Source: Negaprion brevirostris
Lineage: Eukaryota
Assembly (NCBI GenBank): GCA_030324005.1
Contig: JARDVH010000001.1
Span: 106,857,389 to 106,921,388, forward strand
DNA: 64,000 nt
Reading direction: 5' to 3'
The notes under the pieces are model-generated. The model ran no database searches. It had not been told where the DNA came from and saw nothing but the letters and a program-made list of their open reading frames with translations. The translations under genes and the position numbers were made by a program. Below are positions 15,411 through 53,871 of this stretch, piece by piece (position 1 is the stretch's first letter; each line of letters starts with the position of its first letter).

Positions 15411-15414
15411 ACAG

Positions 15415-17555: not shown

Positions 17556-18664
17556 GTAACAGTTCATAGTACTGTATTAAATCAGGTTTCTTAACCAGGA
17601 GAAAAGTTACATGCTGCACATAAGGCTTGAACATATATTGCTCCCTTCCCAAATGAAAGCGTTTTTTGGTTTTATTGTGTATTCCATTTCCCTCCAATAT
17701 GGGACATTTTATATAATCTCACATGGGAAACATTAAACAACACATCTGTTTCATTGATCCCGTGTGATGACATATCAGACATGTAATCTGTATGTCCCCA
17801 CTTGCAAACCTCATTGAAATGATTGTAGAAAGTGGTAACACAGTCCACCTGGGATTGAGTGCTTTTCTAATAGGATTGTGTGTTTGCTGATTATTTGGTT
17901 CTCTCTTGTGAACTCTGTCTGTCATCTTAGGTGGTCCTGGGGAAATAAAGATGTGGAAAGATTTGCCCTGGAGCACCTTTCAGGGTATGGGGAGGTGGGG
18001 AAAGAACACTTCTAATTGTGATACGAGTTGTACAGGCAATGGAAATAAACTCTTCTGTGAACACATTTCTGTGCCAGACAGTCCTATATTAGATAAGTCG
18101 CAGTTGAATGGAATGAAAATGTATTGAACAAGTTAGATACGTGCAGTGTGCCATTTGTCATATTAGTGTAGCAAAGACTTCTAGATTATTTCCACCTCCT
18201 CAACAAGTTTGTCATTTTTCTGAATACATCTGTTTTATTCCTGCAAAAAAAAAGTGGAAATGTTTTAAGGCCAGAGCAGTTTGAGGGAACGATGTGTAGC
18301 AAAGAATTGTGAAGGGCATTATCAAATGTTACATCAATACATTTCATGTCATGTTTTACAATAGTCTGTATTATTACCTGCCGGGATATTCTTTATTTGA
18401 AACTGAGTCAAAAACCAAACAGTACAGCCTCCTGGAGATTGTCGATATAGCACAGTGTGAGACTATCGCTCTAATTAAGGATTGCTAGATTTCTTTCGCG
18501 TGACTGTACATTTACTTTTATTTTCAGTCAGGTTTTGTGTTGGGTCTTGTCATCACAAAGGAAACGAACTCCTTTCTGTAATTGTAATATGTTTCTGTGA
18601 TATCTGACCAGACTTTGCATGGAATAGTTTAAATCATTGAAAATCATTGCTTGTGTTTACAATT

Positions 18665-18830
18665 AAAGTTTATTTTGTTAGTGTCACAAGCAGACTTACA
18701 TTAACACTGTGATGAAGTTACTGTGAAAATCAGCTAGTTGCCACGCTGCAGACCCTGTTTGGATACACTGAGGGAGAATTTAGCACAGCCAATGCATCTA
18801 ACCAGCATGTCTTTAAGACTGTGGGAGAAA
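18665..18830 (-). mobile_element. V-SINE 3' half, tail type B
   Basis: aaagtttattttgttagtgtcacaagcagacttacattaacactg...gactgtgggag. Confidence 0.75.
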
Positions 18831-19569
18831 CCCTGTCACTGAGAATCATCTTCTGAAGAACAAAGCAAAGCACAACACAGGGCCAGGCCCTTCGGCCCTC
18901 CAACCCTGTGCCCATCATGGTGCCCTAAGTAAACTTAAATAAAAAATTTTGCATAGGTAATAAATTCTGGCCTTATTAGTGATACTCATAATCCCAAGAA
19001 TGAATGAAAAAATTAACTAGATTTTGGGATTATATATTAATCTATATTTTTCCATGGCAATTCGGCGACTTGTGTTACTTTATAGGGAACACAGATCAGT
19101 AGGGGTGGTGGGGGCCTGAATTGCGATCCGGATTGCAACAATCCATCCTGTAAAATTCTCATTGCTTTTCTCACTGGCGATGACACTTCATCACCTTTTG
19201 GGAGAATTCGACCTGTCAGCTTTCATTCAGTGCCGCTGCATTCAAATCCTGACACTCCCTTCTTAACATCACACGATTGGCAGTGGTTCAAGATTCAGCT
19301 CACCTGCACTATCTCAAGGGCACAAATGCTATCCTAGCCAGGGATGACCACATGCCAGGATGAAATGAAATAAAACTCTGGTTATGATGGATAGGAATGG
19401 GACCAGATGATGCAGTCCTACCTAGTTGCACAACATTGGAAAAGATGGGGTTGGGAGTGAGGGTGCATTCTTATCCAGAACATTCACACGGAATCTGAGC
19501 AGGCGAGGGCCAGACAATGGAAATTTCCAATGTCCTGGAGAGGCATATGCCAGGCTCGAGTCGAGCGAG

Positions 19570-20892
19570 GCCATAAAATCCCACCCTTTAAATGCCGATT
19601 GAAGTGAAGACGGGAGAGAATCGTGCCCATTTTTCAGTTGAGCTCCCGGTTGCAATTATACGACGCTTATGTATTTTTTTAAAAAGCCCAAATACGATTT
19701 GTGCTTGCAGGGGGAGTGGGCGAAACCTATTCATGCTGAGAAACCGGCTGCTGAACTCTTGAGGCACAGTGCCATGATCTGTCTGTGCACTGTGTACACA
19801 TGGGACCGCTCCTTCATGCCCTGCCCCCTTGGCACTGCATTGTCAGGCTGGCAGTGCCAGGGTACCAGGCTGGCAGCCAATAATTGGATCAGGGGACAGG
19901 GATGGAGGAATAAGAGGTAAACCAAGGACTAGACCAGGGGTTGCAGAACTTGAGAAGTTATAGTGGTAGGAGCAATGGGTTGATTTTAAACTCGAGGGCC
20001 AGAATTTTAACTTTGCTGAGGGACCAAGGGGACGATTCTCCCAGAAGTGCTGAATTGGCAGGAAAACTGTTCTAACTCCCAATTGTTCTGACAATTCGCC
20101 TGAATCTCCGCACTCTGCGCACTGAAGTGGTCCTAGTCATAAATCTCATTGAAAACCCGGGGGGTGGGNNNNNNNNNNNNNNNNNNNNNNNNNNNNNNNN
20201 NNNNNNNNNNNNNNNNNNNNNNNNNNNNNNNNNNNNNNNNNNNNNNNNNNNNNNNNNNNNNNNNNNNNNNNNNNNNNNNNNNNNNNNNNNNNNNNNNNNN
20301 NNNNNNNNNNNNNNNNNNNNNNNNNNNNNNNNNNNNNNNNNNNNNNNNNNNNNNNNNNNNNNNNNNNNNNNNNNNNNNNNNNNNNNNNNNNNNNNNNNNN
20401 NNNNNNNNNNNNNNNNNNNNNNNNNNNNNNNNNNNNNNNNNNNNNNNNNNNNNNNNNNNNNNNNNNNNNNNNNNNNNNNNNNNNNNNNNNNNNNNNNNNN
20501 NNNNNNNNNNNNNNNNNNNNNNNNNNNNNNNNNNNNNNNNNNNNNNNNNNNNNNNNNNNNNNNNNNNNNNNNNNNNNNNNNNNNNNNNNNNNNNNNNNNN
20601 NNNNNNNNNNNNNNNNNNNNNNNNNNNNNNNNNNNNNNNNNNNNNNNNNNNNNNNNNNNNNNNNNNNNNNNATGGTCCTGATAATGAACACACGTGCAGA
20701 AAAGATTTAAATGACGTACCTGCGTTCCTGCCGGTTTCCAGCGTGGTCTGGCCGGTGACTGTTTGCTGGCTCTGGGAGATGCACGTGTGTTCCCGGCGCA
20801 TGCACGAATCCCTGTTCAAGACCGTAGATACACGTCTGCTACCACGGCCTGCAGGAAAAGTTGCAGGTCGCAATGGGAGAATTGTGGCCCAA
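19570..20892. mobile_element. Cluster of Harbinger-type non-autonomous element pieces (partly in a gap)
   Basis: CpG-retaining sequence with TIR-like ends ggggacgattctccc (~20028) and gggagaattgtggccc (~20875-20890), plus gggagagaatcgtgccc (~19611). Confidence 0.4.
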
Positions 20893-21576
20893 GTGTCAAT
20901 GACCACCATCAATCAGGATGATGTTTAATATAGAATGCGATATGGGCAGGTGAGTTTTGAATGAGGTGGAGCTTATTGCAAATGGGAGGCTGAACATTTG
21001 TATTCTCATTCATACCGCTGTTATCAGCAGATTCAATTCCTTCAGAGGCATGTGCACAGTGTTATACTATAGCATCGCTGGAAATATTTGGTCTTTACGA
21101 TCGAGATAAAGTTGGAGGTTTAACTGTGCTTCCAAAACAACACTGGGATTGCAAGTTGAATGGTTAAGCTGGAAAATTGCTTGGACAGTGGATGACAATG
21201 TTGACACAGGCTGAAGATGGTGGATTCTGTTTTTGCAATATGTAATTGGAAGAAATTAGGGCTCTGTAAGACAGTATTACATACCGTGGAGGATTGCGAG
21301 AGGAGGTGGGGAGATAGAGCTGGAGATATTGGTTTTTGCACAAAAAATGATGTGGCTTTGGATCAAGTTGCCAGGAGCAGCATGCGGATGCAGACAAGGA
21401 GACGATTAACCTTGCATGCTTCAAACAGTCCAGAAGTTTAAGTGTTTAGTTAAGTAGTTTACTAATGTGAGACATAGAACAGTTCGCAAGCTTATATATT
21501 GAGAATAAGGTACAGCGATGGCAAGAGTTAAGAAGAATAAGCTGTGAAGTACATTGCAAAATTATGAGAAATATGT

Positions 21577-21810
21577 AGCACAGTGGTTAGTACTGCTGCC
21601 TCACAGGGACCCGGATTCAATTCCGGTCTTGGCAAAACTGTCTTCGTGGATTTTGAATGTTCTCCCCGTGTCTGCATGGGTTTCCTCCAGCTGCTCTGGT
21701 TTCCTCTCCCAGCCCAAAGATGTGTAGGTTAGGTGGATTAACCACGGTAAATGCATGAGGTTACAGGGATAGGGCTGGGGGTAGGCCTGGGTAAGTTGTT
21801 CTTTCTGAGG
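21577..21810 (+). mobile_element. V-SINE (HE1-like)
   Basis: gcacagtggttagtactgctgcctcacagggacccggattcaattcc head and core. Confidence 0.8.
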
Positions 21811-22374
21811 AATAGCCTAACCCCACAAACTCATTCCAGCTGTACTCATAAATTTCAGGTAAAATTATAAAAAGTAGAGGTTTTGATTTGCTGGTTTTTC
21901 ATTCTGGGATTGGTTGACTGGCCCGATCCTGGACTCACTCAACATGTGCGAGTTTGAGTAGAGAATGCAAGGGAATTGATTTGAGGAAATGCGAGGGACA
22001 TATCTCTTGCTCGTCTTTAATATGGAAACTGCCCCTTCAAGTGTTATTTATCTCCCTATCTTTGGTCATAAATGTTGAAACCAATTACAGTGCTGTCCTT
22101 ACTGCTGTAGCAGCTAAGAACATGGTAGGGATCATTTCTGAATGTATGCTTCATTATTGCCTCATTTGTTGTAATTAACTATTGAGCTACTTGGGAGTTC
22201 TTGGCTGCTTCATTTAAAAATTAAACTGCTCTTTGTGATTGACCTTGATGCAATTGTTATAAAAGTAGTGACTGCAATTTAATGTGAAAATGTTGTGATG
22301 CAGAATGTTGTGACACGAGTGGTCTTTTTCCATGGCTCGGGAATTGTTTAGACTTAAATTGTTAATTTGCTATG

Positions 22375-23275
22375 AGTGCCATTGACAAGACCAGCATTTA
22401 TTAGCCAACCCTTATTGCTGTTGGGAAGTTGGCCATGAGGTATTTTAATGAAATGCTGCGGTCTGTGTAGTAGAGGTACTCATTCAATAATAGACAGAGA
22501 GTCCTAGAAATTTGAAATGTGATGGTGAAGGAACAGTAATATATTAACATATTGGGATGTTGTATATCTTGGCTATGGTTTGTTCCTATTGTTGCCTTAT
22601 TCCTAGGTGGTAGAGTTTGCAGGTTTGAGAAGCTACTATTGAAGAAACTTTTGCAGATGATATACACTGCAACTAGTTTGTGACAATGATGAAGGGAACA
22701 CATGTTTAATGGGGGCCCAAACAAGTGGACTCCTTTGTCCTAGATGGAGTCCAGCTTCTTGAATATTATTGGAACTGCATTCATAAAGGCAAATGGAGAG
22801 TATTCTATCACCATGACTTGTGCCATGTAGGTGGTGGACAGTCTTTGGGCAGTCAGGAGGTGAATCACCACGGAATTGTTGTCAGCCTCTCACCTACTGA
22901 TATAGCCACTTAATTGGCTGGTCCAATTAAGCTTCTGGTCAATGTTAATGGTGGAAGGTGGTCTGCCATTGAATGTCAAGAGGAATTGGTTTCTTGTTGG
23001 AGGTAGTTATTGTTTGCCTCTTATTTGTTTGAATTTATCAACCTAAGCCTGGTCTTGCCACATGTAAGCATGGAGTACTTCTATATCTAGGGAATTGTGA
23101 ATAGGACTGAACTCTGTGCAATCATCAGCAAACATCTGCAATTCTGTCCTTATGATGGAGGGTCATTGATGAAGCAGCTGAAAGTGGTCAGACCTTGGAC
23201 ATGACTTTGAGCAATTCCTGCAGTAATGTCTGGGGCTGAGGTGTTTGGCCTCCAACAATCATGGCCATCTTCTTT
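22375..23275 (-). mobile_element. CR1-clade LINE fragment with RT motifs
   Basis: Minus strand gives AGIAQSHVQGLTTFSCFINDP (GVPQGSVLGP..F..FINDL-like, ~23150-23222) and MFADDC (~23118-23135). Confidence 0.75.
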
Positions 23276-24234
23276 CCCTAATTCCCACTGACTTTTTGAA
23301 ATTTCATTTTACTCATTGGGCTAACGCAATTTATCGTTTTCCAAAAATGCCATCGGTCCCACACTTAACAACATATCACAGGAGGTAAATTTTCAATTAA
23401 TGATTCCCCTCATCTAGGTGTGAATCAGAATAGACCTTGATAGATTGAGGAGGATTTACAGAAAGTTGTTGAAGGTAAATGCAATATATAAGGCTTTTAA
23501 ATTGTGAAATGATATTGGCTGAGCAGAACTTGTTTTTAATGGAGAAGAATAGATTGAAGAGTAATATGCTACAGGGCAATAGAAGGTTAAGTAGACTATA
23601 TATAGTATATTTAAAGGAATTAAAACGATTGTGTTTGTGTGNNNNNNNNNNNNNNNNNNNNNNNNNNNNNNNNNNNNNNNNNNNNNNNNNNNNNNNNNNN
23701 NNNNNNNNNNNNNNNNNNNNNNNNNNNNNNNNNNNNNNNNNAGTAGACTATATAAAGTATATTTAACAGATTGGTCATGCTTTTTTGACAACTGAAGCAT
23801 AGAAATACACAACTAACAGGAATACAGAGCAGAATAATTTATTTCACATAAACTCCCAGCAATTGATGTTAAAGCAGTTGGATAAATATTTTAAAGAAAT
23901 GTTATATAAAGTTAGTTTTTATATTTGATGATTCCATTGTAGGGAGATTCATTAAAATACAAAATTAATGTCTTAATTTGTAGTTGAATTTAAGATTTTT
24001 AAAAATCTTACAGTTAAAATGTCTCGTATATGCTATTTGTGACTGTTCTCATTTGGAAAAGTGACTTTTAATCTGTAACACCTGAACTGCTACAAGTCTT
24101 AAAAAAAATTGCAATGTATTTACTTAGGACAAATAGCTCAAAGGAGGGCAGCAGTGGCAGGTTTACAGGGTTATCAAGCAGTATAGGGAGGGGGAGAAAA
24201 GAAAGAATGGGGTCATGATATTTGTTGCGGGATG

Positions 24235-24525
24235 AATGATGCAGTGGTTAGCACTGCTGCCTCATAGTGCCAGGGACCTGGATTCAATGCCCAGCCTGGA
24301 TCACTGTGCAGAGTCTGCACATTCTCCCCATGTCTGCGTGGGCTTCCTCCCAGCGCTCTGGTTTCATCCCACAGTCTGAACGATGTACCAGTTAGGTGCT
24401 TTGGACATACTAACTTCTCCCTCAATGTATCCGAATAGGCGCTGGAGTGTGGCGACTAGGGGATTTTCACATTAACTTCATTGCTGTGTTAATGTAAGCC
24501 TACTTGTGAAACTAATAAATAAACA
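24235..24525 (+). mobile_element. V-SINE (HE1-like), tail type B
   Basis: Complete head, core and the ggcgactaggggattttcac...gcctacttgtgaaactaataaataaac tail. Confidence 0.88.
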
Positions 24526-25404
24526 AAACGTAAACGACTAGAAGGATCTTCGGATGAGTCCATTTTGGTTGAACTAAGGAACAAAAATAGAGCCAGTAAT
24601 GGGATTTTGACCACCCTGATATTAACTGCAATAAAATGAATATAAAAGGTACAAAGTGCGCACAATTCTTAAAAGTTCTTCAGAATGCATTTTGTCAGTG
24701 TCCAGCAAGCCCAACAAGAGAAGAGACTGTTCTAGACTTAATTTTAGGGAATGAGTCTGGACAGATGGAAGAGGTGCTGTAGGGGATCGGTTTAGTAGTC
24801 GTGATCAAAATTTAATGCAATTGTGTAAAAGGATAAAGATTGATCAGGAGTAAACATTTTAATTTGTTGGATTGCTAATTTTGCAAATTGAGATGTGATT
24901 TAACNNNNNNNNNNNNNNNNNNNNNNNNNNNNNNNNNNNNNNNNNNNNNNNNNNNNNNNNNNNNNNNNNNNNNNNNNNNNNNNNNNNNNNNNNNNNNNNN
25001 NNNNGTGATTTAACAAATATGGACTGGACCAGCTACTTGAATGGAAATTAGAGTCAGAGCAGTGGGAGGTTTCAGAGGAAACAAGGAGTCAGAACAAATG
25101 TGTTCCCATTTTTAAGAAAATGGATCTACCGAATCTACACCACACTAGATGTCGAAGAGCATACTGAGCAGGATCAGGAAAAAAAATAATGGCTGGAGTT
25201 TTGAGTGGCGCCCAGGAACAGCTACCCGAGTTGGAAATGTGGCGGTAGTGCTTCTCAATTGCATTATTATCTCTCACTAGATACGCAGGGCATGACCATT
25301 CTGGGACTGGAGGATCAGTATTTATATGGTGGATAGGGTGTCAGCTGAAAGCATTGGATGTCCGGGCATTACCTTTAAAGAGCTGCTCCAGTGGAATGCA
25401 GCCA

Positions 25405-25535
25405 AAACCTTTGATGAAATGTCATCGATCTGAAATGTTAACTCTCTTTGCAGATTCTGCCTGACCTGCTGAGTATTTCCAGCATTTTCTGTTTTTATTT
25501 CAGATCTCCAGAATCTGCAATATTTACGTTTTTGA
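25405..25535 (+). mobile_element. Family-3 Penelope-like terminal fragment with degenerate hammerhead
   Basis: ttgatga-aatgtcatcgatct-gaaa-tgtta followed by gacctgctgagtatttccagcattttctgtttttatttcagat. Confidence 0.55.
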
Positions 25536-25722
25536 CCTGAAAGAGTAGAAGACTGTAACTCTATGAAAGATTGAGATAATTAAGCTGGTGCATGGATTTT
25601 CCCCTGGCACCAGCTCAGTATTATCCAATGAGAATGGTTACTTTTGCTAATTGTTAGATTTCTTTTATAAAGGGAAAGGACTAAAATATTCTGATGCATG
25701 ATATTGTGCAGTAACGCAAATC

Positions 25723-26561
25723 AGAAGTTGCTTTGCCAGTACAGAATTTGAGTATCGCTGAAAGGGAGACATGCCACTAGAGTCCTTTTGTCTTGCAGTA
25801 ATTGGGACAGATGGAAGAATGNNNNNNNNNNNNNNNNNNNNNNNNNNNNNNNNNNNNNNNNNNNNNNNNNNNNNNNNNNNNNNNNNNNNNNNNNNNNNNN
25901 NNNNNNNNNNNNNNNNNNNNNGGAAGAATGGCAACTTCAAAAGAAGCAACAATTTATATTGCATGAGAATAGGGTGCTGATTGTTTGGCCACTCAGCTCT
26001 GATTGGCTGAGGCATTGTCGTGGAGAATGCACAAGGGAACTATTGTCTCCCACCATTGCGTTAAAACAGTCATAATTCTGCACATTGTAAACCGTGTGAA
26101 GAAACATATTATTTTATACTATTGCCAGTCATCGCTACTTATGGCCTATGTATCTGGCATTGCATCAGCCCTTGTGTGCAAAGCTCAAAACATAATGTCT
26201 AACATAAGATGTGATTTTTGCAATTGGGCAGCACATGAAGAACAATCCTGAGTATGCTAAGAATTACATTAACAGCCAGTCCGACTAGTGTTGCAGTTCA
26301 CTTATGCTTGCTAGAAGCTACATATATACGTGCGCTGGGCCTTATCTTCTGCAAGCAGAAACAACATGTCCAGGCATTCTGCCTCTTAAAATAAAACAAA
26401 AGCATAAGAGCAATGCTTCAACCAATCATTTGGCTGGTAAACCATTCAGCACCCATTCTCATGCAGCATAAATTGTTGTTTTCTTTGTAGTTGCTTTTTT
26501 TGTATCTGTCCTGTTGAGTGCAAGACAAAAAGATTCAATGGCATATCTCTCTCCTGGCAAT
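25723..26561. mobile_element. Non-autonomous Penelope-like element (family 2) with long inverted arms
   Basis: Arms ~25750-25985 and ~26445-26561 are inverted. Probable TSD acgcaaatc (25714-25722) and acacaaatc (26562-26570). The right end reads gtcctgttgagtgcaagacaaaaagattc. Confidence 0.65.
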
Positions 26562-27402
26562 ACACAAATCGAAAGGATGAACAATAAAACAACTTGCAAT
26601 GGAAAAGTATCATTTTGGGACTGGTTTCTGGAAGGAGGGAGCCATTTTTCATACAATCTGAGGAAAAAAAACACCTTTAATACATAAATTCTTGGTAAGT
26701 TTGATTATTCTGACCATGCCAGGATTAATGACTCTGAATAAACTTCAGAAGGTCCATTTTATCATTTGGATAATAAGCAGTTCTGCAAATTTGGGGAATT
26801 CTGGGATACTAACAAAATTGACAGCATTCTGGAACATTGAAAAAGGTAGTTGCCTCATAAATTTGACCGATGATGTGCAACAATCTGTGGCTAAGTTTGT
26901 AAAACTTCTGTCTGTTATAATTGTCTCCAGCTATTGTATGGATATGCTACCCAACGTACAAAAGCAAATGATGGAACATTCTGAATGTATGGCTAGAGGC
27001 TAAATGAAGAATTGAAGATCAAGCTGTGTTGTTTATGGACAAGCTTTTAATTCCATTCTAATTAGGATAATGTGTACTGATACAGACACAATAATTGTAG
27101 GATTTGACAGAGGTCAATATTTAAAGTCACGGAAACTGAAGCCTTTTAACTTGACTCTCATTTTGCAAGCAGGGTTTGTGCAATAACTGTATATTTGGCT
27201 ATGCTTTTCTTCATTCATGGATAGTACAAGTCACGCCTATTCTTTTTAAAGAAGAAAGCTTTGTTCATTGAACCTTACTTGTACAGTGTGGTCGGATGGT
27301 GAGATTTGATATGGATTAAGGAGAGAGAGGAAAAAAACCTCCAAACTGTTTTGAATCATTTTGTCATTACTGTTCTCCTGAACTTTTCTCTGACATTTGC
27401 AG

Positions 27403-27525
27403 GTCCGTGGGAGTAAGGGAGAATTGCTGTATGTTCTGGATGCCAGTAATCCGCGGCATTCAAACTGGTTGCGCTTCGTCCATCAAGCTCCGACACAAGA
27501 ACAGAAAAATCTGGCTGCGATTCAG
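27403..27525 (+). CDS. PRDM5: PRDM5 coding exon 3 (PR/SET domain)
   Basis: ag|GTC...CAG|gtgtg, 123 bp, phase 0/0. [41 protein letters not shown]. Confidence 0.96.
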
Positions 27526-28779
27526 GTGTGTATAGCGATATCGCAGAGGCTTTCAGACATGGCGTGTGGTTCAGCAATTGTGTCTCACTTCCAGCGCATG
27601 CCATAGAGCCACCTGCGTTGGCGTAGTGCCCACTCCCTACTTTGTAGATTTGCATTAATGTTCACAAATTAGCTTTTAGTTCCAATAATTAGTTGGTATG
27701 TACATCTGGGATCTGTAGTAATTATATTCTTCTGAAATATTAAGGTTTCAATAACAATATAATACTGTATTTAATCTGTGGTGTAGTGTAGTCAATACTC
27801 TGATGCTTTTAGTCCTAATTTAAAATTCCATATCAGCTGCTTTCTGCCAATGTCAGACAAGATGGGAAATAAAGGCGGAACAACATTGTACTGGACAACA
27901 CCATTAACTATCAATAATCCCTGTTGAAGTAATGATTATATAATTTTTATGTTGATGCCAACTGAATTATTTTATCCAGAATAACAGCCTGCTTTTAACA
28001 TACCTATGTGATTAGTTTTCTCTCTGCACATTCTCAGCCACGTGGGGGTAAAATAAACCCTAGTGCAGCATAGCATACTGTCAAATGGTGCAAACAGCTT
28101 TTAAATGTTCAAAGCTTAAGCCAAGGTCAAGCTTCTGCAAAACTGGCAGGGATTTGGTTCACTTCTCTCCAGGCTGCCAAAGGTCATTCATGTATTCCCT
28201 TCATTGACTTGAGATTTGACACGCCACTCTTTCTCCTGCGCCGCTAGGATTACTTTCTCCCCCTTATCTGGACCACCAAGGATGAATTACTTATACTTTT
28301 ACTTCAAAAGAGAAATTGAATGCATATTCTGCCATTAAATCCTTTAAAGTCAATTAACTAAACCCAACTATATTTCTGCCTAGTCTTTCACTGCTGTAAG
28401 AATAGAAAATGTTATGTATTTGTCATTAGCTATTGGAGATTTAATGTCTCAAAAATGCCCATAGTAATGATGCATATTCAGAGTGGGAGAAATTGAATTC
28501 CGTGAATGGATGGGATGGTATATTCCATTCTGTTTGTGTGGGGGTATACGTTTACCTTCAGGTTGTCTGTCATCATGCCTTTGTTCTGTCATGTGTTTAG
28601 ATGTGAATATTCAAATTGTCGTATTATATGCTTGCAATGGAATAACATGGGTCATGTAATGCGTTGATGGTATCAATGTAAGTTTGTAAGTAGACCTTCC
28701 CAATGTGTTGCAGCTTATCTTTATGCTCAAGGAACAATATTCCGCAAGGAAACATGATTATGCTTACTGATGTGCAGAT

Positions 28780-29055
28780 AATAAGACCAGAAGATATAGG
28801 AACAGAATTAGGCGATTCTGCTCCGCCATACAATCATGACTGATAGGTTTCTGAACCCCATTCTCTCGCCCTTTCCCCATAATCTTTGATCCCCTTAGCA
28901 ATCAGAGCTTATCTATCTCTGTCCTTAATGCACTCAATGACTCGGCCTCCCCAGCCCTCTGTGGCAATGAATTTCACAGATCCACCACCCTCTGGCTGAA
29001 GAAATTCCTCCTCATCTCCGTTCTAAAGGGTCGTACCTTTACTCCGAGGCTGCCA
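28780..29055 (-). mobile_element. CR1 LINE 3' fragment
   Basis: Reverse complement of the ..EMRRNFFSQRVVDL*NSLPQRA..-type C-terminus plus 3'UTR. Confidence 0.75.
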
Positions 29056-31589
29056 CACTAATGGAAACATCTTTTCCACATCCACTGTCTTTGAGTCTAA
29101 TGTATCTGATTACATTTGCTACAGCAAAAACTCGAGGTAAAATTGTAATTCACTTGGGGAATAATTTTTGTACTTTTTTTGTGACCGAGGGGTTAAGTTG
29201 CTATCAGAAACCACATAAATTTATGAGTCTAATTCTTCATGTGTGTACACGAATCTACTTGGCCCCTTACCAACCTGACACATTGATGGCCTTTGCTACC
29301 TTCAATAAAAAAAGCCTTCCACACAAGCGGAGTAATGAAATATTAAAGATTAATGGCACAAGAGCTATTTAGTTTGAAGTTAAGACAGCCTTTATAAAAA
29401 TATATTTTTACTGAAAGATTAAAGATAGTCTCAGTCAGCACTTAACAAAAGAGCATATTTGGACTATCTCCACTCCACAGATGAGTGAAAAATTGGATGG
29501 AAGAAAAGCAGAGGCCTGTTTGGATAAGCAGCTTAATAAATTAACATTTCGGAGAGCAATTCAAAGATGACAGCTTGCATTTACATTATGGTGTTCAGAA
29601 ATCAATTATTTATTTCAAAGCAATGAAAATAACTTGCAAAATTTCAAGGAGAAATCCCGTTAAGATTACAACAGATGAGCTGATGACAGCACTTGCTGGT
29701 CAGTTCGACACACCAATTTATTTTTTTTCCAAGGCCACAATTCAGTTTTGACCTCTGAAGGTCCTGCTGCAATTGCTGCCAGAGGAATGCTGGAGATTTA
29801 TTGCAGAGGAACTATTAAAGGGGATACATTTCTACATCCTCCACCTTTTACTTTTTTATGAGGAAATCATTAGACTCCCAAGATCATCAATCCTAGTTGT
29901 GTAAGACTGATGTTGAATCTATCTCTCCTCGCGTGCATATTGTGCTGCTATGCTGAGTACTTTGTTGTGACGGCAAATTCATGTTAGTAAGTCCATAAAG
30001 TAATATGAATCAGAAATTTAAGCTACAGATGGAAGTGTTTCATTTAAAGGTGCTTAAATTGATGATGGATTATGATACTATTTTTCACTTCATTCTGGAT
30101 GAAGAGATTGAAATTATTTCACTCTGGATGTTAAACCAGCGGCTCTTTTTTCTCTGTCTACACAGTTATGCTTAAGGATGCAAATTGCTTGTGTTTGCAT
30201 TTTCTAAACAAGACTTTCTTTCAGTGTTTTGTCTCTCATGCTCCCTTGAAGGTAGTGACTTGTGATGGTGTGGATGGTCACAGCTACCAGACCCTCTCCC
30301 ATACTTGGTGCTCATTATTTATGCCCAAAACCTTGACAATGTGTTGGCAGAGCGTGATGTGGGGTTTCACCGCAGCCAAACCGTTCAAGATATTACCTGA
30401 TGTTTGCTTGTGAATTTTTCAGCAGGGGTTATTGGGCAATGGCCAGGAGTTGGAACTCTGACCGATTTTTATTCTTCCCTCTTATTACCTTGGGTTGTCA
30501 GGAGCATTTGTAGCCCCTAGACTGACTGAGATTATCATTCAGCCTAGAGTAGGAATTGAAATTGGAAGTTTCCTTGCATTTATAATTCAGTGATTTCTCT
30601 TGATCTTATAAATTTTTTTTATAATTCAGTGTGGCACCATTTGGGGCATTTTTTCAAATGGAGCTATCAGGACAACTATCAATTTTCTCTAAATATGACC
30701 CATTAGCCTGATCATGGTCCATGATCATTTCAAAAAATACTTTCTTAAAAAAACCATTTTGTCTTGAAAGATGTGATAAAGTGGCCTTCAGTTTGCTCAC
30801 TTTATTGTCCTTTTTTATTCATTTTCTCACAGTGACTTGTAAAATCATTTCTGTTATGGACTGCTGAGTAGCTGATTAGTCAATGAGACCTTGTTAAGGC
30901 TAGTGTATGTGTGAGAGGGGGCTCATATGAGTTTATCTAATTGATATTCCTCTTGGCCTCCATTTGGTACCTCTGTGAATATCAAAAGTTCACTTTCAGT
31001 TGCTGTTCCAGTGTCCTGCGCATAGCGCATTGGTGTTCAATTTTCAGCAACATCTCTCTTCCTTGTTTTTAATCAGAATCGTTTTTCTAGTTTTTGCTGC
31101 TTACTAAGTAGAGGCAAGATGATGCAGAAAAGAGTTGGTGAACATATAATGTGAAGAAAAGTTTGTATTACAATAACTTCAAAATACTTAATACATTTAT
31201 TATGATAAGCAGAAGGTTGTTAATACTAATTGCTGTATTTATATATTGCGATGCGGTGATTGTTTCAATGATCTGTTTGTTTCAGGAAAATTTGACAAGC
31301 CTTTTATCTCTTGCGTATGCATTTGCCATTGACTCCTGGCCACAGAAGCAGAGAGGAATTTTTGCCTTTATTGTATAATGTATAATGTCCCCGTGGAGAT
31401 ATCTGCATTCTACAACTGTCAACACAGTTCCTGCTGTCATAATAATGAATAAAAACTGAAGCAACGCTCCAACTCTTCAGGGCGTTTTCAAGAGAGCACA
31501 ATCTTCTCCTTACAGGAGTCCACCTATAAACTATTGCAGTCAGCAAACCCCTGATAACAATGCCAGTGGATCATCTGAGGACTCTCGCT

Positions 31590-31882
31590 TGGGCGGCATT
31601 TTGGTTAGCATGGCTACCTCACAGCATCAGAGACCAGGTTCGATTCCCAGCTTGGGTCACTGTCTGTGTGGACTCTGCACACATTCTCCCCGTGTCTGTG
31701 TGGATTTTCTCCGGGTGTACTGGTTTCCTCCCCCAGTCTGAAAGATGTGTTGATCAAGTGCATTGGCCGTGCTAAATTCACCCTCAGAGTACTCGGAATG
31801 TGGCGACTAGGGGATTTTTAGTGTAACTTTATTGCGGTGTTAATGTAAACCTTACTTACACTAATAAATAATCTTTAAACTT
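31590..31882 (+). mobile_element. V-SINE (HE1-like), tail type B
   Basis: gggcggca...ggttagcatggctacctcacagcatcagagaccaggttcgattccc head, core and tail B. Confidence 0.85.
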
Positions 31883-33816
31883 TATGAAGAACAAGCAGCC
31901 TTTTGCATGTTGGAACAATCATATTAGTCTAATGCTTGGGTTGAGTTGCAAAAAGATACTACATATTTTTTCTGGTATAGATTGATGTCTATGATGTGCT
32001 TGTGAAAGTTGAAAGAGAAGAATTCTGAGGAGTTGAGACCAGTGAGGAGTGTGTGGCGATTTGGTTAGAGAAGGGGGGCACAGCCTTAAAACAGGAGTGT
32101 TCTGTCAGTCACAATAACTAGTTACAGAAGCTAGCACAGAAAATATAAATGGAACAGATGTAAATAGGCTCGTCATTTTGGCTGTGGATTTGAGAGGTCC
32201 GTTACCAGGAAAAGGATTACATTCCATACTAACCTGTTTGTTCCTTTCATGTTTTGGGCATCAAAAGGAATAAATTATAAAGGAGCAACAGGGACTGCAC
32301 TGGCATCACAGAAAAAGGCCCAATCGCCAAATAAAAGATAATTGGCTAGATTTTTCTCTTGTTGGTCTTTGAAAATTTATCAATGACAGCAGCAGTGGTA
32401 AAGCCATGTTCTGTTTTCTTCTTGTCAAGGAAATATGACATTACTAGCAAAGACTTATGAAATATTTGTGAAGAAATTATTGCAACAATACTTTAAATCC
32501 TCCTTTCTGTTCCACACCTATTACACCAATCCACATCATGTTCCTTTCACTCCTTTCATGTATCATCCCATTCCATCCTTCATCCCACCCCTCCTTCATA
32601 TCACCCCAGCCGGCCTGCAATACCACCTTCCCCCTACACCCCAGATGTTTTAGCAGCAACACTGTTGTTAACAGCCACATAGTGGAGGACAAGGAACAGC
32701 GAGAGCCTGGGGCAATAAGAGAGCTAGGGGAGCAGTCAAGACTGTAACTGAGACTGGGAGTGGTAGAGGCTGAGATCAGTAAACTGGATTGAGGACCAGT
32801 AACCCTGGCCAGAGAACAGGAATAGCTGGAGCCTAGTAATTAAAGCCAGGAAATAGAGTTAGTGTCCAGGGTGTATGCTTTGGCCCACCAAATTGAATCA
32901 CCAATTGATCAGATTAAGTGGACAAGCAGAACCTGTATTCCCTGCATGGATTATAAATAAGCATATGGTTAGCTGAATGCACCATCTTTTTGCTACGTTG
33001 AATAGGTATGAAATTATTTATTTTGATTTTCATAAACCAGGAACTCGGTTGGCCATTTCTCAGCCATATCATCTTTTGTGCAGAATGGATTATTATTTTG
33101 GGGGGGAGGGGGGGATGAGGTGGGGGAGTTAAGGTTGTGTTTCTAATGATGGGATATAATATCAGTAAAAGCTGGGGAGTTCTCTGGGAGCAAAGAAGTT
33201 ATTAAAATAATCAAAGGACTTTTTTCAGTTTCAAGAGAAAGGCTCTTTTAATTCTGTGCTCGGCCTCTAATCCCTGCTACCTTCAACCAGCCATTAATAT
33301 TCAAATAAAGGATGTTAAAGCACAGTGATGTTGGTGTGATGCCAAAAGCTTTATTTCTTAAAAAATCAACAGCAAGTATATTTAGTCCATTATTTTTGCA
33401 ATGCTCATGATCTGAAGTTGATTGATTCCCGTTGAATGCACTTCAAGTTATTTATTTTAAGAATGTATTTATTTCAAAAGTATATCACAGCTACAAGTAG
33501 AATATGAGCAAAGTGTCAAAAAATGTTAATGATTGCTTATTTTATCTGAATGTAAAATGGAGCAGTGTGTTGTAAAAGTTATTTTAATTGGTTGTGGTTG
33601 CAACATAGAGTTCATTCATCTTGGTGTTGGGACAAAAACAGTTCACAAGCAGCTGAGGTGGCCAGCTGTTGTTTTAGTGTAGCTGCCTGATGTGGAGTTA
33701 TTCAAGTTTGTTTGGCTGTCCTGTCATGTCTTTAAAATGTTGATGCATTAAAACTTTCAGCCTCACATCAGCCTTTTTAGAAATATTTCTGTTCCAGCTC
33801 AGTGATCTCAACAAAC

Positions 33817-34590
33817 TGTTACGATCTCCGAAGAGACTGACAACTTTTAAAATTCCTCAAACAACCAACATAAATAACCGAAGGGCAAGATATTGTGTTC
33901 AGATATTTACTGTAACAAACAAATTTAAATCAACATAAATCATGCTATACTTCGCAGGCAACTAATACCTCGAATAAAAAAGACAAAGTGTATTAACTAA
34001 CTAACACAATCGAGATATGTTTTACAATCCCTTTGGCTGTGCACCACACTGATGACAGATGTGTAGCCTAACAAGAAAAACTCTGGGCTACTTTTGGCTC
34101 CCTAGCAGGTTCACCTCTCCCTGCTGTGCTAGGTCACAACTTCCAGTGTCCTTCAAAAGTTGTTTCACTCAGCCTGAGACTTTCAGATCTGACTTTCACC
34201 AGCAAGGCCCATCTTAGTGACTCCTTGTTCCCTAAATCTCCAAAATTCCTGTCTGTTTACTTCCCTTCCTTTTGAACAGAAAGCAAGCTCTTACAAGTGG
34301 CCTGCTTGTCCATAGCTGTAGTACTTTGTTCCTCCACACAGCAGTAATTGCTTTCTCTTTCTTCCTCTCATTCTGTTGCTGTCTCATAGTTGTTCTTTCT
34401 GTGAGTTGTTGTGTGATAGTATACAAACTATCAATTGATTTCAATACGTTTTGTAGCAGTTTCACTGTCATGGCAAACAGACCACGGAGGCATTTCTATA
34501 AGCTGGAATGTTTCTGAAATTCACAATGTTACTTTGTCAAATGGGACATGTTAAAACATAAACATCTTATAAGGTCCAACTTTTGTAACA
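33817..34590. mobile_element. Probable solo LTR (774 bp)
   Basis: Begins tgttacga and ends ttgtaaca (TG..CA with 7/8 inverted match). Flanks aaac and taac could be a 4-bp TSD with one mismatch. Confidence 0.45.
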
Positions 34591-41400: not shown

Positions 41401-43159
41401 NNNNNNNNNNNNNNNNNNNNNNNNNNNNNNNNNNNNNNNNNNNNNNNNNNNNNNNNNNNNNNNNNNNNNNNNNNNNNNNNNNNNNNNNNCTTGATGTTGC
41501 CAATAAATATTATAAAATCTAAGTTTATCATGAACAACCAAAAGTTTTTCATGACTTTGCTGACGACTACAAATTCTGGAATACTTCTTAGTGTGTTTTT
41601 TTTATATATTGTAGAAATGGAGTGAATGAGACTGGGCTAAAACACAAGCCCTTATAACATGCAGTGGAATGTGATTGTTGACTATGGGCCAGCTAAAAAA
41701 AAATGCGCTGTCTTGCGTTGACATAGAGCTGTTTCTGCAGCATCTAATGCCATGGATCATTGAGGAGAGGCTGCTGTCACAAGGATCTTTAATCACATTC
41801 CTCTCCTGCTTATACACAAACGTGGATAAAGCTGAAAGCTTGAGTGTCATTCAGCGGATCAGTTTCTCAGGAATAACTGGATTTTCTGGAGGTTTACTTT
41901 GAATTTGTCTCGGCTTATTTGATTTCAAACGCATGAGTTGATTAGCATTACAAAGGACAAACGTTGAAACCTCATGACAGTTTATGCAAATCTCTTCCGC
42001 TATCACATAATTAAAAATCGTTAACCAGCCTCCACATTGCGAAAACTCTCATAAAAATTGCTGGCTGAATGAAAGTCCAGCGTTAGTTTAATTAAGTTTG
42101 CTGGATGTTAATCAGATAAATGTTGAGATTTATGGCATCATTTGGAAGACTTCATTAGACAAACATAGTTTTGTTTTTTGGCATTTGGCACAGCATCCTC
42201 CCAGGATACACTTCCCTCAAAGCTGGAGCTGCTGCAAGCCACTGTTGGTGGGTGGGACAGCTGCTCCCATATGTGGGGCTGTTTGAAGTTCGTTTTGGGA
42301 ACTTTTAAGGAGAAAGGATAAGGATTCCTTTTATAAGTCTGAATAACAAATGTGTTTTTCTTCTGCAATATGTTGGGCTGTTTCAGTTTAGTTTGAAATC
42401 AGACAGCAGAGTTGAGGGTGCACCAGTGGGAAGATTTACTTAGGAATGTCCTAAAAAGCAAATTCTGAAAATTGCACTGTTTTAAGGCATCCAAATACAA
42501 TTAGTTCCCTCTCTCTACTATTTTCCTTCAATATGTTTTTTATTTATGGTTCATTTTACAGGCATACTCATCAAAGTAATATTTTCGCTTTCAACTTTTC
42601 ATTTCTTAATTCATTCCTTTTTTTTGTTTGAAGGTGGTGCCTCTCTGGGTTCAGATCCACATGGCCCAGTAGCCCACCAATAACTCTACCCAACTGACCA
42701 TGCCTTGGAAAGGGCAGAGGCACTTCTCCCTGCCTTCCTGGGGGTGATAAAGTTGGACCCAGCCACAAGAATAGTTTGGCATTACACAAGCAGTCCATAC
42801 AAGGCATTACAAGGTGTGCAAAAGAATTTCAATGCTACTGATGAGGGTGCGGATGAATCCCCAAACAGTTGGTGTGTGTGGTATCATCTCTCTCTTAATA
42901 TCCCCACTCTTCAGTTGACCCTGGAAAATGGGGCCACCTCCAGAGAGATTGCGGCCAGGCCCTTGCAACAACAATTCACGTTTGCAGCTTTGTTAGAAAC
43001 TCAACTGGCTGCCAGGCAGATTGAAGACTTCACCTTGGAGAGACCAGTGGGCAGAATAGATAGAGACCTTGAAGGAGCCACTAATCTTCCACCGCCTTGC
43101 TTAACCACAGATCAACTGATGAAAAATCAACACTCCAAAATGGCGTGATTCCAGGTAAA

Positions 43160-43225
43160 CCCGTTGGACATTAACACGGTGTTGTGAGACTTCTTACTGT
43201 GTTCATCCAGTCCAACGCTGGCTCG
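43160..43225 (+). mobile_element. Family-1 Penelope 3'-terminal fragment with tail
   Basis: gttggacattaacacggtgttgtgagacttcttactgtgttcatccagtccaacgctggc. Confidence 0.7.
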
Positions 43226-44158
43226 TGGTAACCAGAGATCAGTGGACGTGCTGAAGCACATCTCAGTGAGAATGCCAGTGGCATTATGGGAGCAGGGTGT
43301 TTAGGTTTTTCTCAGGATTTCATTGGATCACCTTTTTTTTTACCACCCTCTCGTGTAATGTGCACCATGATTTCAGCAAATCATCTGGGACAGACAGTAC
43401 ATTTGTCTGCAACTGGGCCTCATAGGCTGTGCATCTAGACGTCACTAGCCATCTACATCTCTAAAGCTATGAAGAGCAGTCTATCACTGGTGGTAGAGTT
43501 AGTAAATCTTCTTTAAAGAAACGTGTTATGTTTGGGCATGATGTGTTATGCAGGATTGTCAATAATCATGTTTACAGGGTGTAATCCTGATCCCTCAGCA
43601 AACAGCTTGTTATGTTGCTTGCAGGGTTGATTATTGGATGGTATGGTAGACTGTCTCAACATGAAAATATCATGGATGATGTGGAGTAAACTGAGGGTTC
43701 TTGGGTTTTTTTTTGTATCAAGTGAATTTCTCTGGCATTTTGTTATTGTGTGTCTCATTTTCTATTTCTGTCTGTCTCTGCAGCCGACCTCTCTGCCTGT
43801 TTGTTCTCTCCCTTTGTATCTGTTTCCACTACTCCGCCCACCCCACCAACATTCTTTTTACGCTTCTCATTGTTATGTCTCCTTTAACTTTCTCTTCAGC
43901 CTTTGGCAATTCTGAGGGTGGGGGCTGGGACAACACTCTGCATAACACCAATGTGGGGCCCAGGAAGCTGAACTTTCTGCCAAACACAGCAGTTCGTTTG
44001 AGCAGGCTAGCTTGCTGTCTCCTGCACTGCACTCCATCCAGAATATGCTCTGTAAGATTGTGTGGAAAAATATTGATAACATGGTTTGGAAGTAGCTGAA
44101 AATGTCGTAACATTATAACACGCAGAAATAGTTAGTGTCCTTTGTTTTGGAACATCTA

Positions 44159-45007
44159 AGTAAGAAGCCTGACAACGTCAGGTTTAAGTCCAACCGATTT
44201 ATTTGATAGTAAACTCGCAAGCTTTTGGGGTTTGCCCCTTCGTCAGGTGAATGGANNNNNNNNNNNNNNNNNNNNNNNNNNNNNNNNNNNNNNNNNNNNN
44301 NNNNNNNNNNNNNNNNNNNNNNNNNNNNNNNNNNNNNNNNNNNNNNNNNNNNNNNNNNNNNNNNNNNNNNNNNNNNNNNNNNNNNNNNNNNNNNNNNNNN
44401 NNNNNNNNNNNNNNNNNNNNNNNNNNNNNNNNNNNNNNNNNNNNNNNNNNNNNNNNNNNNNNNNNNNNNNNNNNNNNNNNNNNNNNNNNNNNNNNNNNNN
44501 NNNNNNNNNNNNNNNNNNNNNNNNNNNNNNNNNNNNNNNNNNNNNNNNNNNNNNNNNNNNNNNNNNNNNNNNNNNNNNNNNNNNNNNNNNNNNNNNNNNN
44601 NNNNNNNNNNNNNNNNNNNNNNNNNNNNNNNNNNNNNNNNNNNNNNNNNNNNNNNNNNNNNNNNNNNNNNNNNNNNNNNNNNNNNNNNNNNNNNNNNNNN
44701 NNNNNNNNNNNNNNNNNNNNNNNNNNNNNNNNNNNNNNNNNNNNNNNNNNNNNNNNNNNNNNNNNNNNNNNNNNNNNNNNNNNNNNNNNNNNNNNNNNNN
44801 NNNNNNNCCGATTTATTTGATAGTAAACTCGCAAGCTTTTGGGGTTTGCCCCTTCGTCAGGTGAATGGAGAGTTCTCCTTTCACCTGACAAAGGGGCAAA
44901 CCACGAAAGCTTGTGAGTTTATTAACAAATAAATTGGTTGGACTTAAACCTGGTGTTGTCAGACTTCTTATTGTGTTTACCCCAGTCCAACGCTAATCTC
45001 CACATCA
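44159..45007. mobile_element. Palindromic mini Penelope-like element (family 1 variant) with two inverted hammerhead motifs
   Basis: TSD ttggaacatcta at 44147-44158 and 45008-45019. Fold-back centred near 44872, with the tail on the right end only. 62 bp are duplicated across an internal gap. Confidence 0.85.
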
Positions 45008-45345
45008 TTGGAACATCTAGCCAGGACAAGCACAGTTCAGAACAATTGTCTTCCCATTATCAAGTAATGTATTGCCATCCTGTCATTCCCCTGACAAATG
45101 GAATTGCCTTTTAACAGCACCACCTAAAGTCGTAAGTGGTATTGCAGGTACGTTTTGATATTTTTACTTAAAGCTTGACAGAAATTTAACTATATTTTGA
45201 GATGTGATAGTGCAGTTAATACCTTTAATATGTTATGGAGTTGTGGAATTTATACATATTTTGTATTCCTCTTGTTCAAGTTTAAGGGAACAGTTAAAGT
45301 TGTGAGATCTTTGTTCATTTTTCTAAATCTGTTTACAATGTGCAA

Positions 45346-45628
45346 AGTAAGAAGTCTGAAAACACCGGGTTAAAGTCCAACAGGTTTATTTGGAACTAGC
45401 TTTCGGAGTCTCAGGCTCCTTCATCAGGTGAATGAGGACTTGTGTTCACAAACAGGCCATATACAGACACAAACTCAATTGGAATGTGAGTCTTAAAGGT
45501 AATCAAATCTTAAAGGTATAGACAATGTGAGTGGAGAGAGGGCCAAGCATGGGTTAAAGAGATGTGTATTGTCTCCAGCCAGGACAGTTAGTGAGATTTT
45601 GCAAGCCCAGAAGTTGGGCGGGGTTACA
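45346..45628 (-). mobile_element. Family-1 Penelope 3'UTR/pLTR fragment with intact hammerhead core (45393-45432)
   Basis: Homologous to 7241-7540. Minus strand reads cac-ctgatga-aggagcctgagactcc-gaaa-gcta. Confidence 0.85.
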
Positions 45629-46196
45629 GTATGCATAATAGAGCTCCTTTGTAAAGTTTTGTACATGGGGACCTTGCTGTAATGAAATTTGGTGTAAAAC
45701 GGGTCCATCAAGGGTCCTGAAAATGCTATGTAAAGTTACCATTTCAGAACATAAATGCACTACTAATAATTTAGAACCAGCCAAACAGTTTCAGTTTCCT
45801 GACTAATGAATGCAGCAGTTTTCTCTATAAATACTAAATAGTTAAAATTGCATTGATACCCGCAAAACAATCAGTGCAAAAAGGTGTATACTGAATCATG
45901 AAAGAGAAAATTTTATACCATCACCAAGGGACTGAAAATCATTGTCCACGTCAAGGAAGGTGCTGTGCAAGCGTCTGATTTACAGAGAATGGTGATCACT
46001 AAATCAACATCTCATGGGTAGCTTAAAAATAAAGACACATTGAGAAAGACATTGACAGAGGTTGATGACATTGGCCAACCAAGAAAAGAAGCCCAAAGTG
46101 CAGACAACATGCCTCTCCACAAGACCGTATGCATGTGGCGCAGTTCAAGCTATACTTGACGAGCCATCTGAAACGTTCTTTTTAAAATTGTTGCAT

Positions 46197-46282
46197 TAAG
46201 AAGTCTCACAACACTAGATGAAAGTCCATCAGGTTTATTTTGAGTCACGAGCTTTCGGAGTGCTGCTCCTTCATCAGGTGAC
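46197..46282 (-). mobile_element. Minimal family-1 Penelope terminal insert
   Basis: taagaagtctcacaacactagatgaaagtccatcaggtttattt... homologous to 7241-7325. Confidence 0.8.
46244..46282 (-). ncRNA. Minimal type-I hammerhead ribozyme motif
   Basis: Minus strand GUCAC-CUGAUGA-A-GGAG-cagca-CUCC-GAAA-GCUC^GUGAC. It has a 5-bp stem I, complete core, 4-bp stem II, palindromic AGCU in place of stem III and a CUC cleavage triplet. Confidence 0.75.
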
Positions 46283-48449: not shown

Positions 48450-48816
48450 GGAGAGGACTGGCATTTGGGAAACTGAAACCAAATATCACATCAAGATCAG
48501 ACTGAGTTGCCCAATTTATCGCAACCTGGATATCATCAGATTTTGAACATGGAAGGAAAAAGCACCGTTCACAATGGGGAGAAACTGTACACGTGTTCTG
48601 TGAGTGGACGAAGCTTCAGCCAGTCATCTGTTGATCCACAAACACAGTCACTGTGGGGAGAAGCTGAGGAAATACAGGGACTGTGGGAAGGGGTTCCATT
48701 ATCAAAGTGAACTGGAAGCTCACCGGCGCAGCAGCCACACTGGGGAGAAACTGTTCATCTGCTCAGAGTGTGGGAAGGCATTTGTTCGTTCATCCCAACT
48801 GCTGACACATCAGTGA
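48450..48816 (+). pseudogene. C2H2 (Kruppel-type) zinc-finger gene fragment
   Basis: [27 protein letters not shown], frameshift, then [59 protein letters not shown]. Cys residues are lost and there is a premature TGA. Confidence 0.8.
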
Positions 48817-51951: not shown

Positions 51952-53101
51952 GTAAGTACCACACTAAAATCCAGGCTTCCATAAAATTATCAAATAGAGC
52001 AAAGGTATCAATAAAGATGATAAATAACTGATGGTAAAATGTTTGATAAGTCTTGGGCACCATGTTTGGGGAACTGGGATCTCACCAAAATGGTGCATCA
52101 CAGGCACAACCTCCTATCTCATGTCGTAGAAGCCTATTCAGTTGTTGTGTCATATTGATGACTCCTCTAACAATACCAGAGTCTATTTGCTGATCCGTTG
52201 TGAGGACACCCAATATGTCCCCTTGATTCATGAGCAAGTGGCAAACAGGGAGAATGTACAATCAGGTGTTGCAGATCAGTGACGTATGTGAATTAACACA
52301 CTGCCAAAAAGGTCTCAAGTAGACTTCACTTACATGGAATATAAGCCCTCTTAGGTCCTCCATTGATCTGAGGCATCAGCAATCAGTCGTAGGCTGCCTG
52401 TTCATTCCTGATCGAGAATGGCAGTGATACACTGGTTGGTTGTACCTATCTCTGAGGTGGAAGAGTTCAGTCCGATTTCAAGTCGCTGAGGAAGTTGCCT
52501 ACGTGACACCATGTAACTTCTGTGTTAAGGTTTGCTCTGTTCATTGATGTCAAATACTGCAATTATATCCTTTCAGCAGCTCAAACAGTGGTTTGCCATC
52601 TCTGTGTAAATTTTGGGATGAAAATTGTTTGGTATTCTGCCAGCCCCAGGAATGAGTGGAGTGTCTCCTTCGTAATAGGAAGAAGCATCCACAAGGTAAT
52701 TTTTACCTTGTGGCTCTGTGGGGCTTTTCTTTCCAGTTGTATAGGTAGTCCTGGAAAAGTGACTCATTCTCTCAACAACTGAGCTTGTGCAGATTGACTT
52801 TAAGACCATTGGAGAGTGTGGTCAGTAGTTCTTCAAGAAAGAATAAATGTTTGTCCACTGGTGGTGGCCAAATGCAATTGGTACCGAAACATCCACGCAC
52901 TGAAACAAACGCTCCAGTGTCAAGTTCTCTGAGTGCCTGTGCTATGCATTTGTGAAATGCATAATGGCGAACCATTATGAATTCTTTGGGGTAACCTTGT
53001 CCAAGGTTAAATGGAAAACTCCAGAATCCATTTGAATGCAGAGTCGAAGAATTCTTAGATCCAGTTAGTATCTGTGACGAAAGCATTGGCGATTCCCTCA
53101 T

Positions 53102-53871
53102 TAAGAAATCTCACAACACCAGCTTAAAGTCCAACAGGTTTATTTGGTAACGCAAGCCACAAGCTTTTGGAGCGCTGCCCCTTCATCAGGTGAGTGGGAG
53201 TTCTGTTCACAAACAGGGCATATAAACACACAAACTCAATTTACAAAATAATGGTTGGAATGTGAATCTTTACAGGTAATCAAGTCTGAAAGGTACAGAC
53301 AATGTAAGTGGAGAGAGGGTTAAGCACAGGTTAAAGAGATGGGTATTGACTCCAGCCAGGACAGTTAGAGTTTGCAAACCCAGGCAAGTCGTGCAGGTTA
53401 CAGATGGTATGACATGAACCCAAGATCCTGGTTGAGGCTGTCCTCTTGTGTGGAACAACACAGAATCGCTGAGCAGAGACTGATAGCCAAGTCCCGCACG
53501 CAGGAGGACGGTCTCAACTGGGATCTTGGGTTCATGTCACACTATCCGTAAACCCCACGACTTGCCTGAGCTTGCAAAATTTCACTAACTGTCCTGGCTG
53601 GAGACAATACATATCTCTTTAACCTGTGCTTAGGTCTCTCTCCACTCACATTGTCTGTACCTTTAAGACTTGATTACCTGTCAAGACATGCATTCCAACC
53701 ATTATCTTGTAAACTGAGTTTGTTTCTATATATGCTCTGTTTGTGAACAGAACTCCCACTCACTGATGAAGGGGCAGTGCTCCGAAAGCTTGTGGCTTGT
53801 GCTACCAAATAAACCTGTTGGACTTTAACCTGGTGTTACCACAGTCCAACGCCAGCATCTCTACATCATGT
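53102..53871. mobile_element. Fold-back Penelope-like element (family 1)
   Basis: TSD ttccctcat at 53093-53101 and 53872-53880. Arms 53102-53455 and ~53490-53838 are inverted, with the tail on the right. Hammerhead core ctgatga..gaaa at 53763-53790. Confidence 0.9.

Follow-up and report, generated by a model that had tools for sequence, protein, structure and literature searches.

We propose, with a probability of about 0.85, that the palindrome lying between positions 44147 and 45019 of the window (the whole 64,000-nucleotide stretch of Negaprion brevirostris DNA that was analysed) is a single old insertion flanked by a target-site duplication (TSD), which was built on site from two 5'-truncated ends of a Penelope-like element joined head to head. 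This dead old insertion is an ordinary example of a published layout, that of the EN+ Penelope-like insertions, with its inverted 5'-truncated copy, its one-sided tail of 30-40 bp and its TSD. No coding DNA is left in it, both arms being cut too short.

Architecture and age of the insertion

The exact 12-bp repeat TTGGAACATCTA, present on the + strand at 44147-44158 (left) and 45008-45019 (right) and already reported as a TSD in the initial annotation, is a real TSD, as supported by two lines of evidence. First, TSD-like repeats were found in none of 40 mismatched flank pairs (0/40) and in 32/40 true two-armed copies (7-17 bp, mostly 12-13), so that the 12-bp repeat is not expected by chance. 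Second, a relative has an empty site, where no more than 10 letters of its contig separate window positions 44142 and 45008, 6 more than the 4 letters of a clean empty site. Contigs running from the flank into the element were recovered on both sides in six public contig sets, and at the right junction only in one further set; in five of the six sets with both junctions, the contigs have roughly 2-8% of other letters as compared to the window. As the contigs of several organisms enter the element from both flanks, the insertion is therefore old and common to several organisms.

The extents of the arms are best given in family coordinates, where 0 is the G starting the single-arm hammerhead 24-mer. 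The inverted arm, devoid of a tail, is the 3' end (pLTR) of a Penelope-like element read on the - strand (44159-44255; 94% identity to the family majority sequence); it runs from family position +82 inward and, once the N run described below is closed, resumes at 44870-44876 to end at -21. The sense arm (44874-44972, + strand) is the 5'-truncated 3' end of the same Penelope-like element, with 93% identity to the family majority over 44874-45008, and extends from -16 to +120 with the tail included. The two arms meet at a head-to-head junction (44874-44876; family positions -21/-16), where they overlap by a 3-nt microhomology, TCT, common to both. The fold-back centre that had been noticed around AGT is thus located, as the 26-nt GGTGAATGGAG-AGT-TCTCCTTTCACC, at 44860-44885. 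The inverted arms are real and 88% complementary (44161-44255 versus 44876-44970), so that near-perfect stands here for about 12 mismatches per 100. The tail, correctly described as occurring on the right end only, is 35 nt long (44973-45007, + strand) and stops directly ahead of the position where, in three longer copies, an ATG opens a frame. By analogy with the PAc element of Anolis (PMC11167929), it would be the stretch bounded by two reverse-transcription start sites. The gap-closed element folds to a single hairpin (-151 kcal/mol); hence, any transcript of it would be predicted to form one long hairpin burying the ribozyme.

The same anatomy, with longer arms, occurs at two other places of the window. 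At 53099-53869, a two-armed Penelope insertion with the TSD-like repeat TTCCCTCAT comprises an inverted arm (-279 to +83) and a sense arm (-321 to +120). At 6710-8498, another two-armed Penelope insertion harbours an endonuclease frame (7701-8099), the TSD-like repeat CTGGAGTCTGATG and, beyond a gap of 100 N, an additional tailed piece. Three further stretches, at most about 1.3 kb away from the element, are Penelope end fragments that belong to other subfamilies (43112-43222, 45343-45629 and 46194-46281), the last one with an intact-looking hammerhead core. A short frame with C2H2 zinc-finger-like repeats and an HTGEK linker is found at 48604-48816 (+).

The parent family and its hammerhead motifs

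Two sets of loci were picked by exact motifs in the genome, where the hammerhead 24-mer and a downstream 29-mer have 623 and 5,192 exact matches, respectively. For the first set, 90 of the 100 listed places matching the single-arm 24-mer were fetched and 2 duplicates were removed, leaving 88 loci; the second set, obtained from the 29-mer by the same procedure with near pairs merged, also comprises 88 loci. The 88 loci of the first set fall into 42 copies with an abutting inverted arm, 6 with an inverted arm across a gap, 28 solo copies and 12 copies cut by N. Their 5' ends are spread between 0 and about -860, the arm lengths forming a continuum up to the coding region.

The Penelope origin suspected in the initial annotation is well supported, as was its view that the distinct stem II belongs to a separate subfamily. 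Indeed, the same GGGG-CAAA-CCCC stem II is found in three longer copies (L049, L101 and L080) following a frame that shows a CX4CxxC linker motif and VVY..CC..YIG (a GIY-YIG-type core), and the arms of our element are 3' ends of such a coding element. As it lies behind an endonuclease frame in these copies, stem II thus appears to mark a subfamily of a coding, endonuclease-bearing Penelope-like element. The linker CHSNLCKTC, present in L049 and L101, fits the CX2-5CxxC pattern described as the mark of Neptune/Nematis in the stretch from the RT domain to the EN domain (PMC8557442); this linker motif, taken alone, points to a Neptune-like family. Pfam returned GIY-YIG matches in 2/8 related frames (best E 0.00076) and an RVT_1 match (E 0.0037), all below the cut-off, and no credible family for either the L049 frame or the window frame 7701-8096. 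The best longer homologs carry PF00078, and RT is present in sister subfamilies; among 20 RT-rich loci, none of the copies that bear RT had precisely this stem II. Judging by the best protein homologs, the host would be a cartilaginous fish. Sequence past the tail was seen in 3/30 loci, in the form of the ATG-opened frame, and our element has none of it. A perfect palindromic master centred on TGGCCA, an idea taken from two loci (L006 and L007), was rejected, the real upstream sequence being TCTGAGGCCAGAAC.

The number of records matching the stretch was 2,035 in the relative with the empty site, as compared to 15,000-34,000 in the other three runs. This far lower number suggests that the subfamily expanded after the split from that relative.

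Each strand of the element carries a minimal type I hammerhead motif, which motif comparison predicts to be inactive: at 44214-44251 on the - strand, with a G12 to A change at 44226, and at 44880-44917 on the + strand, with a G8 to A change at 44890 and a stem II pair broken at 44903. With the core positions numbered according to the established nomenclature, the required core (C3-U4-G5-A6-N7-G8-A9 and G12-A13-A14) is therefore incomplete in both copies, through G8A on the + strand and G12A on the - strand, and both changes are of the CpG type. Neither hammerhead was matched by a strict CTGANGA..GAAA scan, and an Rfam scan of the 64,000-nt window gave 0 matches at the gathering score. The motif noticed on each strand is a hammerhead by descent, with a core that is intact in neither copy. 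In the family majority sequence, the minimal type I core is intact and comes with a palindromic AGCT, and stems I and II form on folding. The occurrence of a ribozyme on each of the two strands results from the inversion itself, and it is predicted to be inactive. Stem II differs strongly among subfamilies with its pairing kept, and the flanking sequence is nearly constant.

Cervera and De la Pena describe a minimal type I core with the palindromic AGCT, a highly variable stem II, and dual motifs on opposite strands 100-700 bp apart (PMC4209133). As in the Penelope-like hammerheads published there, our motifs have an extra base after A9, the AGCT palindrome in place of helix III and a 5-bp helix I; unlike them as described, they have a short stem II (4 bp) and core mutations in both copies.

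Origin of the two arms, recurrence of the centre and the N gap

The Penelope-like protein of Anolis cleaves and extends both strands, and two start sites bound the tail (Frangieh et al. 2024, PMC11167929). We propose that, in a similar way, a Penelope-like protein would have nicked both target strands 12 nt apart; that priming at the outer start site by one target end would have given the tail, the other end having used the inner site, which lies about 35 nt upstream, with template RNA from one source; that synthesis of both cDNAs would have ended some 100-135 nt on, shortly beyond the hammerhead; and that host end-joining would have fused these short cDNAs head to head. The Anolis protein needs RNA up to ORF +172, well beyond the start sites (PMC11167929). 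As our insert ends before this downstream RNA, it would, by analogy with the related protein, be unable to move again.

The tail is paired with its absence almost strictly. The two motif-picked sets (88 + 88 loci) contained 68 two-armed copies, 21 of which were set aside because their outer end was cut or atypical. In the other 47, the outer ends were tail plus no tail in 44 cases, no tail plus no tail in 3 and tail plus tail in 0 (binomial p 2e-10 versus 0.5). Rare two-tailed copies (L004, L014 and L169) were seen in the pooled set, which comprises 87 two-armed copies from 270 loci and mixes biased and unbiased sets, with some neighbouring insertions. Such a strict pairing is not explained by the in-vitro work on the Anolis protein, as its start-site use is equal between strands (PMC11167929).

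An alternative, which we regard as improbable, is that one cDNA folded back on itself by self-priming at AGA/TCT and that the mirror arm was copied from it, in keeping with Arkhipova et al. 2013, who read junction palindromes as self-priming. The junction indeed lies at a spot able to form a 3-bp snap-back, where many copies carry short templated fold-back extensions, and the arms of one copy share subfamily variants. Three points nevertheless argue against it. First, the tail-less arm of our element (-21) reaches further 5' than the tailed arm (-16). Second, the tail cannot derive from a tail-less cDNA. Third, among 53 copies the arm reaching further 5' was the tailed one in 23, the tail-less one in 29 and neither in 1 (the arms being equal), for loci picked by exact motifs and BLAST end points good to a few bases only. 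This split disfavours the simple fold-back of one cDNA, and suggests that, as a rule, neither arm is a copy of the other arm's cDNA. An end trimming of a few bases may save the fold-back of this particular copy; it falls short where the arms are offset by tens to hundreds of bases. As many junctions carry short templated fold-back pieces, short fold-back synthesis contributes locally. Short templated duplications directly past the fold-back centre were noted in L126, L129, L130, L135, L138, L139 and L145, and we assume that they resemble the snap-back synthesis of polymerase-theta end-joining. In another copy (L100), an inverted piece from upstream (-544 to -433) has no overlap with the sense arm (-139), an inversion of the L1 twin-priming type.

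The distribution of the 5' ends was also considered. In the first set, 21/71 uncensored ends fall at -5 to -12 (3.7 per 100 nt versus 1.2-1.7 in adjacent bins). This modest pile-up lies at the 5' edge of the hammerhead, with a TATA-like box 30 nt ahead of it, and would reflect run-off at the start of the RNA. The second set is devoid of a clear pile-up (5/44 ends between -10 and -22; 30/44 at +9 to +48), and inspection by eye found no consistent extra cap-derived G at the 5' ends. On these grounds, a transcription-start hot spot was not retained and remains a lead.

Returning to the arms joined on site, it is worth comparing them with the MITE-sized element of the initial annotation, that is, a non-autonomous 235-bp palindrome transcribed and inserted as one unit, which we regard as highly improbable. 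Compact double-hammerhead centres of any kind are common, with 271 strand matches and very mixed middles; the genome has a single occurrence of the exact 26-nt centre, and 63 of its family form at no more than 1 mismatch. Both strands were matched by each of the 40 relatives with the best scores, a figure biased by a query containing both arms; L148, a locus truncated at a contig end, agrees with our element in centre and tail side and is a possible sister. Many copies with the same centre and different TSDs, which had been put forward as the sign of unit movement, thus exist in the letter. Movement as a unit does not follow, as the copies with a same centre differ in tail side and, on both arms, in subfamily. 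Indeed, the 30 inspected copies with our centre have many stem II variants, a tail on either side and frequent extra templated pieces after the centre. Similarly, the 7 copies that share another recurrent centre have at least 5 stem II variants, mostly common to both arms of one copy; 3 of them are tailed on the right and 3 on the left, and the side is unresolved in the seventh. As the same centre occurs across stem II variants and tail sides, it arose independently, the shared centres being convergent joins re-formed at 3-4-nt microhomologies.

Four further observations stand against unit mobility: the junctions are diverse (48 different ones among the 53 tail plus no-tail copies of the pooled set); no arm-class-specific variants were found after 49 tests; the arm lengths are continuous up to the coding region, with longer coding copies carrying the same stem II; and what follows the tail in longer elements is missing from the insert. 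Hence, the unit-mobile, MITE-like reading is largely refuted for the sampled copies. The opposite case of a unique junction, which would have made the palindrome a one-off, was too strong in view of the 271 strand matches: the compact palindrome is a recurrent product. Within one copy, 32.5% of the non-CpG variants are common to the two arms, versus 10.7 +/- 1.7% in shuffled pairs (maximum 17% in 1000). Both arms come from one subfamily, as a family-wide result and not for this copy alone, the arms of which share 0 of their 3-4 non-CpG variants. At the title and abstract level of the literature, no Penelope-derived palindrome moving as a unit was found; Repbase or Dfam may already hold the family.

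The length of the element depends on the N run (552 N, 44256-44807), which is flanked by an exact repeat of 62 nt, as had been noticed: 44194-44255 is read a second time at 44808-44869 (- strand), a probable assembly overlap. We therefore interpret the run as most likely a false gap between contig ends overlapping by 62 nt, the shorter of the two options offered in the initial annotation. The 62 nt are identical, including the G12A change of this copy, despite arms that are 12% apart, and the chance of such an identity for two copies of that age is about 4e-4. The 176 loci contain 13 N gaps that are bordered left and right by element pieces of the same strand; exact overlaps of 17-73 nt were found at 7 of them, and one gap with an exact overlap is 365 N long. 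From these comparable gaps, we infer that the gap is probably false and that the true element length is about 235 bp. That the gap hides real sequence, either the retrozyme-like tandem array also envisaged at first or a local duplication, is very unlikely in spite of its stated size (552 instead of the round 100 common at other gaps), the lack of any contig bridging it and the report of retrozymes in one cartilaginous fish (bioRxiv 10.64898/2026.07.22.740005), because the overlaps and the identity just described argue against it and because the 176 loci contain 0 gap-free head-to-tail hammerhead units. The missing bridge concerns four public contig sets, where the unitigs break inside the repeat and are uninformative either way. 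Apparent tandem matches 136-156 nt apart were rejected, the three inspected ones being overlaps across 100-N gaps. Besides, an N gap adjoins the 5' side in 44/88 copies of the second locus set, which makes these elements a leading source of assembly breaks here.

Known systems and significance

The insertion of two head-to-head arms has counterparts in several published systems. In Adineta vaga, Pen2a is described with an inverted pLTR 37 bp shorter, a 31-bp tail and a 9-bp TSD (PMC3846280), and a general scheme of EN+ Penelope-like insertions is given by Craig et al. 2021 (Fig. 2; PMC8557442). Like Pen2a/Pen2, the insertions of this scheme and the Penelope of D. virilis (PMC2377424) as they are described, our element has head-to-head arms and a one-sided tail; it also shares with EN+ Penelope-like units an inverted arm shorter by about 35 bp, a TSD of about 9-13 bp, a palindromic or microhomology junction and trouble in short-read assembly. 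It differs from the units described in that both arms are without coding DNA, which places it at the short end of a continuum and not in a separate structure.

Similarly to the Poseidon element PAc of Anolis carolinensis (PMC11167929), our family would have two start sites bounding the tail and both strands extended, and the distance from the outer start to the start of stem II is about 120 nt here versus 111-118 nt in PAc. Unlike PAc, it has a CX4CxxC linker, which as a motif alone favours Neptune/Nematis over Penelope/Poseidon; the opening of its frame seems to lie past the tail, and its genomic copies pair the start sites almost strictly. As compared to the non-LTR retrozymes (bioRxiv 10.64898/2026.07.22.740005), the element is likewise non-coding and pLTR-derived with type I hammerheads; the retrozymes are described as head-to-tail arrays with intact ribozymes, whereas it is head-to-head and mutated, with no array found.

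The locus itself is of little weight, and may be used as a presence/absence marker among related species. For annotation, it is worth noting that such palindromes mimic MITEs and break short-read assemblies, and that a common centre is not a proof of unit mobility. The copy statistics bear on the question left open by Craig et al. 2021, namely the formation of tandem or inverted pLTRs and of the tail, and they link the two target ends with the start sites that Frangieh et al. 2024 saw in vitro. Whether they reflect a fixed rule of Penelope-like elements is, in our opinion, evenly balanced. According to this rule, the two target ends would always divide the start sites of the same source RNA between them, one end taking the outer site and the other the inner; the two would extend independently and be joined by the host through microhomology, to generate the thousands of short two-armed copies. 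If this is true, the unexplained layout of an inverted pLTR plus a tail becomes a directly testable double-priming model.
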